Below, piece by piece: positions 47,673 through 49,617 of a stretch of DNA of 62,645 bases. Position numbers and translations under genes: made by a program. Source of the stretch: Chlamydiota bacterium (GTDB lineage: Bacteria > Chlamydiota > Chlamydiia > Chlamydiales > 2-12-FULL-49-11); assembly GCA_947478685.1 (NCBI GenBank), contig CANJWO010000003.1, positions 1-62,645 on the forward strand, written 5' to 3'. Numbering within the stretch: position 1 is the first letter of the stretch; each line of letters opens with the position of its first letter. The notes below the pieces were generated by a model. It had not been told where the DNA came from and ran no database searches. It saw only the letters and a program-made list of their open reading frames with translations.

Positions 47673-48515
47673 ATGTTAGGGTGGATTTTTTGGGATCCGA
47701 GTAGTGAGTTTGTAATCATTCCTTTTGTGAATATCCCTATCACTTGGTACGGGCTGTTGTTCGCTACAGGCTTTTGGCTTGGGTTTCATATGTTTACATA
47801 CATGTTAAAAAATAGACTTGGTTCAAAAGATGCAAATGCTTTTTCAGAAAGGCTCTTGCTCTATATAATTGTAGCGACAATCATCGGTGCACGACTTGGG
47901 CATATCTTTTTCTACGAACATCCGATGGAATACCTAGCCAATCCTATTTCAATTTTTAAAACCTGGGAAGGGGGATTAGCAAGTCACGGCGCCGTCCTTG
48001 CGATTGTATTGGCGGTCCTCATTTTTTCTATTAGAATTAGAAAAGAGTTCCCCGAATTTACCTTTTGGAAAATCCTAGATTACCTCTCAGTTCCTGCAAT
48101 GCTTCTAAGCACTTTGATCCGTGTCGGTAATTTCTTTAATCAAGAAATTTTAGGTGTTTCTACAGATAAGCCATGGGGAATTATCTTTGGCCACCCCGCG
48201 GATGGCGGACTTATTACCCCAAGACACCCAGCTCAGCTCTATGAGGCTGCCTTCTATTTTGCCCTCTTTCTCCTCCTCGCCCATATCTGGTACAGAAAAA
48301 GGGACGAGCTTCTTCCAGGCCGCCTTGCCGGCATCACTCTAGTAAGTGCATTTCTCTTTAGATTTCTCGTCGAATTCATAAAAACAGAGCAAAGCGCCTG
48401 GTTTGACCAGCCTAACGGCTCTCTTCTTATGGGTCAGGTCCTGAGTCTTCCTATTATCGCAATTGGCCTCTATCTCCTAGTCAGAAAAGATAAGAAGTTT
48501 ATTCAATCACACTAG
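47673..48515 (+). CDS. lgt: Prolipoprotein diacylglyceryl transferase
   Basis: YGLLFATGF, GGLASHG, GNFFNQE, HPAQLYEA. Start taken at the ATG at 47673. Confidence 0.9.
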   Translation: MLGWIFWDPSSEFVIIPFVNIPITWYGLLFATGFWLGFHMFTYMLKNRLGSKDANAFSERLLLYIIVATIIGARLGHIFFYEHPMEYLANPISIFKTWEGGLASHGAVLAIVLAVLIFSIRIRKEFPEFTFWKILDYLSVPAMLLSTLIRVGNFFNQEILGVSTDKPWGIIFGHPADGGLITPRHPAQLYEAAFYFALFLLLAHIWYRKRDELLPGRLAGITLVSAFLFRFLVEFIKTEQSAWFDQPNGSLLMGQVLSLPIIAIGLYLLVRKDKKFIQSH

Positions 48516-49617
48516 TTTGATAATTGATTACAGTACAACTAGATTGTGCATATTGAAGTGCTTTGGCTTCTGAAATAATGGTGCAAATGTTGTCATTTCT
48601 TAATAGGAATTCGCCTGTCTCTAATTTTTCAATTTCAACATAGTGACCACCGCCCATCTGTTCGCCTAAATGGCAAATGATTGATTTTGCGGCAAGTTTT
48701 ACAGTAACATCTTTTCCGGTTGCTTTATCTGTGACACGAATGGTTTGGTCTTTAAATGGATCGGTTACTGCCATCTTCGATTTAACTGGAACAAATGGCC
48801 TGCCACTCAGAATTTGAGTTCTATTAATAGTGATGCTAATGGATTGGAGCTTTGTTGCATCCTGATGAGTAAAATGTATTTGTTTTGTGAGCCTTTGTCT
48901 AGGTGTTGATCGGTCTGTTGTTTCTTCTGCCACTACTGCTCCAAGTAACGCTGCAACTGAAGTTTTTGCCCTTCCACTAGCGGTTGGGAGGGAGCATTGG
49001 ATTATGGAACTGGAAGAAAACTCAGAGCTATTGGCTGTCCCGCATCCTTGCATCTCAAGTGAAGTTGCTGGATTTGTCTCCATCTCCAAACAGCTCATTA
49101 GAGCTAATAGGCATTCGTCAGAAGCTGCCTGAGCACCTAAGGATCCCATCTGTGGGTATAAGGCTTGGAGAGTCGATTTTATAATAGTGAGTGCGTGCGA
49201 GATCTCTTCTTTGTTAGGGCTAATACCTCTGGTATTTGTATGAAGTAATTGCAATGCAAAGATAAGTGTATCTTTTTTGGTAGGCACCCTGGATGTTGAA
49301 GCTTGTTCTGCTTTTTGAGCGAGAATCTTTGTAATTCCTGGGGATGTAAAAAGAGTTTGTAAAGCAGCATTCATAAAACAGGTGTTTCCCTTATTGGGTA
49401 AGCCCATAGCGCGTATCGAAGGGGGAGAGACTCGGTCTTTCAGGGAGGGCGGTTCCTGTATAACTGTGCTAATTAGACGAAAACACTCAACAGTCTTAGA
49501 ATTAGAGAGTAATGATGTTGCGGTTAGGTTGCCATCCAAATATTGATTTAATAACACTGTAGCATTATATGCATCATGATTGGCACCGAAATGGTCTTTA
49601 ATTGTAGTCATAGACAT
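48499..49617 (-). CDS. Eukaryote-type ubiquitin-specific protease (peptidase C19/USP) domain protein; candidate deubiquitinase effector
   Basis: Cys box GLPNKGNTCFMNAALQTLF and His box GGGHYVEIEK, followed by LRNDN. GGAGGA lies 7 nt upstream of the ATG. Confidence 0.8.
   Translation of the reverse strand: MSMTTIKDHFGANHDAYNATVLLNQYLDGNLTATSLLSNSKTVECFRLISTVIQEPPSLKDRVSPPSIRAMGLPNKGNTCFMNAALQTLFTSPGITKILAQKAEQASTSRVPTKKDTLIFALQLLHTNTRGISPNKEEISHALTIIKSTLQALYPQMGSLGAQAASDECLLALMSCLEMETNPATSLEMQGCGTANSSEFSSSSIIQCSLPTASGRAKTSVAALLGAVVAEETTDRSTPRQRLTKQIHFTHQDATKLQSISITINRTQILSGRPFVPVKSKMAVTDPFKDQTIRVTDKATGKDVTVKLAAKSIICHLGEQMGGGHYVEIEKLETGEFLLRNDNICTIISEAKALQYAQSSCTVINYQTSVIE

Follow-up and report, generated by a model that had tools for sequence, protein, structure and literature searches.

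A predicted USP-type (C19) cysteine protease gene beside lgt in an uncultured chlamydial genome: a candidate soluble deubiquitinase effector

The USP Gene and Its Locus

The subject of this paper is a gene for a predicted ubiquitin-specific protease (USP, peptidase family C19) in a 62,645-nucleotide stretch of DNA from a Chlamydiota bacterium (GenBank assembly GCA_947478685.1, contig CANJWO010000003.1, positions 1 to 62,645; GTDB order Chlamydiales, 2-12-FULL-49-11), and this whole stretch is referred to here as the window. The gene encodes a protein of 372 amino acids, for which we use the name P0001 throughout, and the product is almost certainly a cysteine protease of the USP fold whose active site is intact. 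An earlier note on this DNA, made before any database search, had recognized in this open reading frame a Cys box, a His box and a following Asn/Asp region, and had proposed a search with the UCH/USP model of Pfam. The search gave a significant match, far beyond chance: PF00443 covers residues 72-353 with 68.1 bits (E = 1.2e-18), the curated cut-off being 23.9 bits. NCBIfam, in turn, holds no model that matches P0001, and Rfam and tRNA scans across the window were empty.

The features of the locus are collected in Table 1. The USP gene is convergent with lgt and overlaps it by 17 nt at the USP 3' end; both the overlap and the identity of lgt agree with the earlier description, the latter by its Pfam match. 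On the other side lies a conserved chlamydial gene for a protein of 612 amino acids, which has no significant match in Pfam or NCBIfam.

Table 1. Features of the USP gene and its flanks in the window
Feature	Position	Strand	Basis
lgt (prolipoprotein diacylglyceryl transferase)	47592..48515	+	PF01790, E 5.6e-60
USP-type (C19) cysteine protease gene (P0001), 372 amino acids	48499..49617	-	open reading frame, PF00443, AF2 model and Foldseek
Asn341-Asp342-Asn343: third catalytic residue (N341) and the conserved Asp after it	48589..48597	-	alignments
His box ICHLGEQMGGGHY, residues 314-326	48640..48678	-	sequence; aligned to the USP46 His box
Cys box GLPNKGNTCFMNAALQ, residues 72-87	49357..49404	-	sequence
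N-terminal helical module, residues 1-54, motif LNQYLDGN at 23-30; linker 55-67	49456..49617	-	model and HMM
Shine-Dalgarno sequence GGAGG, 7 nt before ATG	49625..49629	-	read from sequence
Extended -10, promoter-like (TTATATGATATAAT)	49641..49654	-	pattern search
Gene for conserved chlamydial 612-amino-acid protein, other flank of the insertion site	49695..51533	-	orthologues

Catalytic Motifs

The Cys box of P0001 contains the oxyanion residue Asn75 and the catalytic Cys80 (codon 49378-49380), and the His box ends in GGGHY, which comprises the catalytic His325 and the aromatic Gly-Gly gatekeeper Tyr326. The Cys-to-His spacing is 245 residues. In alignments, the sequence LLRNDN at residues 338-343 occupies the position of the 'F[ND]D' motif of USPs. 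Seen across the 29-member family alignment, the residues N75, C80, H316, G318, H325, Y326 and D342 are invariant. The thumb Glu of USPs binds Arg72 of ubiquitin (PMC10719079), and its equivalent in P0001 is E168, which is kept together with Q163 of the thumb motif QxDAxEF (Q..DE; local sequence QAASDECL). On all the sequence and fold criteria tested, except for one residue of the thumb motif, P0001 is a C19 peptidase.

Predicted Structure and N-Terminal Module

An AlphaFold2 (AF2) model of P0001, built with a 29-sequence alignment of relatives, reached a predicted local distance difference test (pLDDT) score of 86.9 and a predicted template modelling (pTM) score of 0.80, while the single-sequence version reached a pLDDT of only 38. 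The model has four short helices at the N-terminus (residues 3-54); residues 55-67 form a disordered linker and residues 80-176 a helical Thumb, the stretch 187-251 contains beta strands at the position of the Fingers, and the Palm closes the protein. The best 50 matches found by Foldseek in the PDB were all USP catalytic domains (E ~1e-17, target-normalized TM score 0.65-0.77), including USP35, USP1, USP21, USP14, USP30, USP2, USP46, Ubp8, USP18 and USP36; the fingerless TssM was not among these 50. Based on the model, P0001 is predicted to have a Thumb-Palm-Fingers fold with a Fingers-like sheet, and the family profile matches USP46, USP12, USP21 and USP2 full-length at E = 1e-25. The Fingers of P0001 are about 28 residues shorter than those of USP46, as measured by the gap in the alignment, and they contain no CxxC pairs, so this subdomain would be zinc-free.

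The segment of about 70 residues before the Cys box had been described in the earlier note as having no recognizable domain. Its length was given correctly, but it is not featureless. Residues 19-38 (ATVLLNQYLDGNLTATSLLS) fit the consensus fnqaLNeYfDGrisleeLkk of a hidden Markov model (HMM) made from the N-termini of relatives with 14.2 bits, a score that was reached by none of 2000 shuffled sequences, the highest of which scored 8.1. The N-terminal helices have pLDDT values of 73-81, with a mean of 53 for residues 1-10. The motif, written as LNxY[FL]DG, was found in 15 of 45 related proteins, and at least 11 others of these 45 carry a strongly hydrophobic N-terminal segment, resembling the membrane-attached enzymes of Simkania. 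In P0001 itself no hydrophobic segment was found anywhere in the protein (maximum Kyte-Doolittle value over 19 residues, 1.04), and therefore neither a Sec signal nor a membrane anchor is predicted. Since the LNxYxDG motif and the hydrophobic N-termini occur in different members of this set, the USP catalytic core is paired with alternative N-terminal modules, with P0001 representing the soluble type.

Bacterial USPs show a wide architectural variety. One related core is located at the C-terminus of a protein of 3528 amino acids (P0107), and in P0015, P0017, P0020, P0041, P0043 and P0076 the USP cores stand behind strongly hydrophobic N-termini, and large insertions separate their Cys box from their His box.

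Relatives and Phylogeny

An exhaustive HMMER search of 1.84 billion representatives returned 115 matches at E <=1e-3. The nearest of them is a 99% identical twin, which lies on an ENA contig of 1.7 kb between flanks identical in kind (lgt and the 612-amino-acid gene); it was also the only sequence retrieved by a word-based homologue search with P0001 alone, and a search of genome contigs with P0001 yielded no relative. The true neighbours of P0001 are proteins of 320-500 amino acids with a full-length identity of 25-34% and E-values from 2e-24 to 1e-8. Five of the six relatives that carry an organism name are assigned to Chlamydiota or Simkaniaceae, among them the 'Chlamydiae bacterium' proteins NBO24511.1 and MCH9632509.1 and the 'Simkaniaceae bacterium' proteins MCY3975444.1 and QVL57309.1, the last of which lies on a 1.9-Mb contig. 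All 29 aligned family members match PF00443. When P0001 was scored against a leave-one-out profile of the family, 219.5 bits were obtained, compared with 68 bits for the Pfam model, and eukaryotic matches to the family profile reached 30-100 bits. The best solved eukaryotic USP matched the single sequence of P0001 at E = 7e-5. P0001 thus belongs to a little-studied USP radiation in the Chlamydiota. Of the 115 matches, several dozen are apparently bacterial, and USPs would accordingly recur among the effectors of environmental chlamydiae.

Family members were found on bacterial contigs of 50-125 kb, where they are flanked by two oppA-like genes, with a GspD secretin close by, and sometimes form a tandem pair. 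Such a pair of PF00443 genes is located on a 126-kb metagenome contig (L004, 8001-9191 and 9295-10644; likewise L005 and L006), again with an oppA-like gene (SBP_bac_5) on either side and a GspD-type secretin in the vicinity, and the orthologous site in L007 carries a single USP gene, which indicates local duplication within the family. A further clear member of the LNxYxDG-USP family, P0042 (MEI7488221.1), is labelled 'Chryseobacterium sp.' and lies on a 3.3-kb contig of a metagenome-assembled genome (MAG); the label is probably a binning error.

The top scorers in phmmer, P0003, P0004 and P0011, were vertebrate proteins and were rejected as close relatives, because each of their scores is a sum over 5-10 tandem USP copies. 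Together with P0037, they are gene models of 1900-3200 amino acids with 5-10 near-identical tandem USP domains, which are probably collapsed or fused USP17-like arrays. Such tandem-domain models are a trap in tables of closest homologues.

A phylogeny against amoebal and other eukaryotic USPs had also been proposed in the earlier note. In a quick maximum-likelihood tree of profile-aligned columns, P0001 falls, on a long branch, inside a clade of 35 small USPs (support by the SH-like approximate likelihood ratio test, SH-aLRT, 81), nested in a clade of 51 sequences (SH-aLRT 93); most members of the latter seem, from their length and gene context, to be bacterial, and few of them are named. The vertebrate USP17-like clade stands apart. 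With weak support and most leaves lacking a taxon label, the tree is consistent with a place among bacterial USPs and not decisive.

Expression Signals and Environmental Occurrence

The promoter-like sequence TTATATGATATAAT sits in a 77-nt AT-rich spacer upstream of the USP gene. It is part of an AT-rich element of about 34 nt ending in TTATRTGATATAAT, which occurs at 49638-49672 before the USP gene and at 60921-60956 (minus strand) before a gene for a CHAT-like/Sel1 protease, where the copy of the extended -10 lies at 60924-60937. A pattern search of the window with a 14-mer of the element gave 2 matches, compared with 0.07 expected. The element may be a shared promoter of candidate effector genes. 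A third copy that had been proposed before a lipase gene aligns poorly.

All sampled 31-mers of the region were found in freshwater or lake-water metagenomes of at least two studies, and part of them also in other metagenomes. The USP sequence persists at ~99-100% across lakes of several studies, and Logan contigs from two runs cover 47500-51600, or most of this span, with zero differences. In a freshwater metatranscriptome, two contigs with at least 99% identity (48612-48840 and 49367-49589) lie inside the USP gene, and no contig of the same metatranscriptome falls on lgt or on most of the 612-amino-acid gene. This suggests that the USP gene is transcribed in situ. In a sediment metatranscriptome (run X18), a 224-nt contig covers 49681-49861 at the 3' end of the 612-amino-acid gene, with a word depth of 27 and adaptor remnants at both ends.

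Comparison With Known Deubiquitinases

The earlier note had regarded the USP family as essentially eukaryotic, a view that needs correction in the light of the published TssM of Burkholderia and three active USPs of Simkania negevensis (PMC10643670, PMC10719079, PMC13720258). These four, TssM and SnUSP1-3, are the only bacterial USPs counted in a 2026 review (PMC13720258). SnUSP1-3 are active deubiquitinases, and they lose their activity when the Cys, the His or the gatekeeper Tyr is mutated (Boll et al., 2023; PMC10643670). Like P0001, they are USP-type enzymes encoded by a Chlamydia-like bacterium and possess the complete set of Cys, His and gatekeeper Tyr, with a Cys-to-His spacing of 250-283 residues compared with 245 in P0001; two named members of the P0001 family come from Simkaniaceae MAGs. 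In contrast, the published description of the SnUSPs is of large proteins whose hydrophobic regions probably attach to membranes, whereas P0001 is small, predicted to be soluble and equipped with the LNxYxDG module; in addition, the activity of the SnUSPs is proven and that of P0001 is predicted. P0001 is an extension of an effector kind already shown in Simkania, within a so far uncharacterized soluble subfamily, and chlamydial USPs would have at least two architectures, a soluble one with a conserved N-terminal helix module and a membrane-anchored one.

TssM of Burkholderia pseudomallei and B. mallei is a bacterial effector with a USP-type core, gatekeeper Tyr and thumb Glu, but it lacks the whole Fingers subdomain and has a 'Littlefinger' loop and an N-terminal immunoglobulin-like domain (PMC10719079), whereas the P0001 model has strands at the Fingers position and a helical N-terminus and is matched best by canonical USPs. 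The minimal USP domains of eukaryotes (USP12/USP46, USP2, USP21, USP30 and USP14) share with P0001 the Thumb-Palm-Fingers organization and all catalytic motifs. Their identity to P0001 is only 16-20%, however, and P0001 differs from them in its shorter Fingers without CxxC zinc ligands, in the lack of accessory domains, and in having a gene with a ribosome-binding site and bacterial neighbours.

The presumed role of P0001, removal of ubiquitin in the host cell as a chlamydial effector, is also that of ChlaDUB1/Cdu1 and ChlaDUB2 of Chlamydia trachomatis (PMC5370187, PMC10942603). As had been stated in the earlier note, P0001 is distinct from these enzymes: their fold is the unrelated adenain-like one of clan CE, compared with the papain-like clan CA fold of a USP, and Cdu1, which doubles as an acetyltransferase, is membrane-anchored in the inclusion. 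The general picture of how chlamydiae manipulate host ubiquitin is unchanged by P0001. Its value may be practical, as a small soluble protein could be easier to express and crystallize than the Simkania enzymes, whose full-length forms resisted solubilization, and it could help to show how ubiquitin is bound by a zinc-free USP with reduced Fingers.

Proposed Function and Alternative Explanations

Chlamydiae are obligate intracellular bacteria. Because of this way of life and by analogy with SnUSP1-3, it is probable that P0001 reaches the host cell by export and acts there as a deubiquitinase, and the host-directed role already considered in the earlier note is plausible. To our knowledge, a type III secretion system is present in all chlamydiae, and P0001 would presumably be delivered by it into a eukaryotic host cell, probably that of a protist. 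Cys80, His325 and Asn341-Asp342 would then hydrolyze the isopeptide bond after the Gly-Gly tail of ubiquitin, with Tyr326 acting as the Gly-Gly gatekeeper, Glu168 binding ubiquitin Arg72 and the zinc-free Fingers sheet gripping the ubiquitin body. The inclusion, bacterial proteins or selected host proteins would thereby lose their ubiquitin marks, and ubiquitin-dependent autophagy and degradation would be blunted. The LNxYxDG helical module may serve secretion or targeting. We infer that P0001 is enzymatically active, acts on ubiquitin and is secreted by the route named, and that its N-terminal module has such a role.

Several points weigh against this proposal. Activity, substrate and secretion are predicted, for an organism that is uncultured. 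P0001 is a long branch with at most 29-34% identity to any relative. In the thumb motif, Ala165 replaces the usual Asp of QxDAxEF, the sole deviation found, and USP-fold enzymes can favour other modifiers such as NEDD8, ISG15 and SUMO. The support from RNA consists of the two short contigs of one run, for which carry-over of DNA is possible.

It is unlikely, on balance, that P0001 is active but prefers a Gly-Gly modifier other than ubiquitin (NEDD8, or an ISG15-like or SUMO-like protein), or that it is directed to particular substrates with little cleavage of chains. Precedents for both exist, as SnUSP2 reacts with an ISG15 probe too and SnUSP3 barely cleaves chains (PMC10643670), and the long branch and Ala165 of P0001 would fit a changed preference. 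However, P0001 keeps both the Arg72-binding Glu168 and the gatekeeper Tyr326, its best fold matches are ubiquitin-specific USPs, and ubiquitin is the sole modifier common to all possible eukaryotic hosts.

Quite unlikely, too, is that P0001 is not exported, and either acts on bacterial substrates inside the bacterium or is an inactive remnant kept by chance. Such an explanation would agree with the lack of a signal peptide or membrane anchor, secretion being wholly inferred, and with the absence of the gene from close relatives, by which it is dispensable. Yet no gene for a ubiquitin-like, E1 or E2 protein lies nearby, the neighbours being lgt and the conserved chlamydial gene, and the USP gene has a frame of 372 codons with every catalytic residue intact, codon usage typical of the genome and expression signals of its own, and is kept at ~99-100% identity in lakes of several studies. 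Chlamydial effectors typically lack Sec signals, so this feature of P0001 is in line with export.

Beyond the probable export and deubiquitination, a wider proposal can be put forward tentatively, which we regard as possible though doubtful in its entirety: the LNxYxDG module and the compact zinc-free USP core would define an uncharacterized family of soluble deubiquitinase effectors across the Chlamydiota, separate from the Simkania type with its membrane anchors; the N-terminal module would represent a new domain for secretion, chaperone binding or host targeting, for which membrane anchors can be substituted on the same catalytic core; and the gene would be mobile among chlamydial genomes, landing in variable junctions such as that between lgt and the 612-amino-acid gene.

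Insertion Site and Origin

Both lgt and the 612-amino-acid protein served as queries for related loci. In eight of them (L002, L010, L011, L013, L014, L017, L018 and L024), lgt and the 612-amino-acid gene are direct convergent neighbours without a USP gene, at a distance ranging from an overlap of a few bases to a gap of 220 nt and with 35-81% identity of the 612-amino-acid protein. Other genes occupy the same junction in two further loci: proteins of 290, 844 (glycine-rich) and 360 amino acids are encoded in L012 (6848-11832), and one of 369 amino acids in L015 (1795-2904). This makes the junction a variable one, at which only the window's lineage acquired an insertion of the USP gene together with a promoter-like region of its own. 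The insertion postdates the split from relatives whose 612-amino-acid protein is still ~80% identical. Around the USP gene, only short repeats at chance level were found; no USP remnants were detected in the lgt/612 spacers of relatives, and no plasmid or phage homologues of the gene were found, so no vehicle is indicated.

In the earlier note, the gene had been regarded as probably acquired horizontally. It is a lineage-specific insertion, and the closest relatives of P0001 are bacterial and mostly chlamydial, not eukaryotic (219 bits with the family profile compared with 68 bits with Pfam). The note had also taken the lack of a C-rich tail as a sign of different origin. The USP gene does lack such a tail, with 18% C-ending codons among the last 50, but most genes of the window are alike in this. 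Composition was rejected as a mark of foreign origin: among the 49 window genes examined, the USP gene is one of the most typical in GC content (0.408), in GC content at third codon positions (GC3, 0.319) and in its codon-usage distance of 0.112. A recent direct transfer of the gene from a eukaryotic, amoebal host is accordingly placed among the very unlikely explanations. The overwhelmingly eukaryotic distribution of the USP fold and the absence of the gene from all eight related loci with the same flanks are what such a transfer would leave. Against it stand the native composition, the bacterial full-length relatives with E-values and profile scores well beyond those of eukaryotic USPs, the N-terminal motif common to bacterial members, and the lack of introns, zinc-ribbon cysteines and extra eukaryotic domains; the weakly supported tree, with P0001 in a bacterial clade apart from the vertebrate USP17-like one, points the same way. 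The immediate source of the gene looks chlamydial rather than eukaryotic. An ultimate eukaryotic origin of bacterial USPs, which is the published view (PMC13720258), is plausible.

That a eukaryotic fragment was misjoined to a bacterial contig, a notion prompted by nothing but the eukaryote-like domain, has a practically negligible probability: contigs of independent runs and studies span the locus without differences, which excludes a chimeric assembly, the separate ENA contig carries the 99% identical gene between the same flanks, and the USP gene of the window overlaps lgt by 17 nt.

Orthologues of the 612-amino-acid protein were found in 17 metagenome loci at 35-81% identity, in every case with lgt as a neighbour, and the protein has an invariant EEFHDPFSD motif near its N-terminus.

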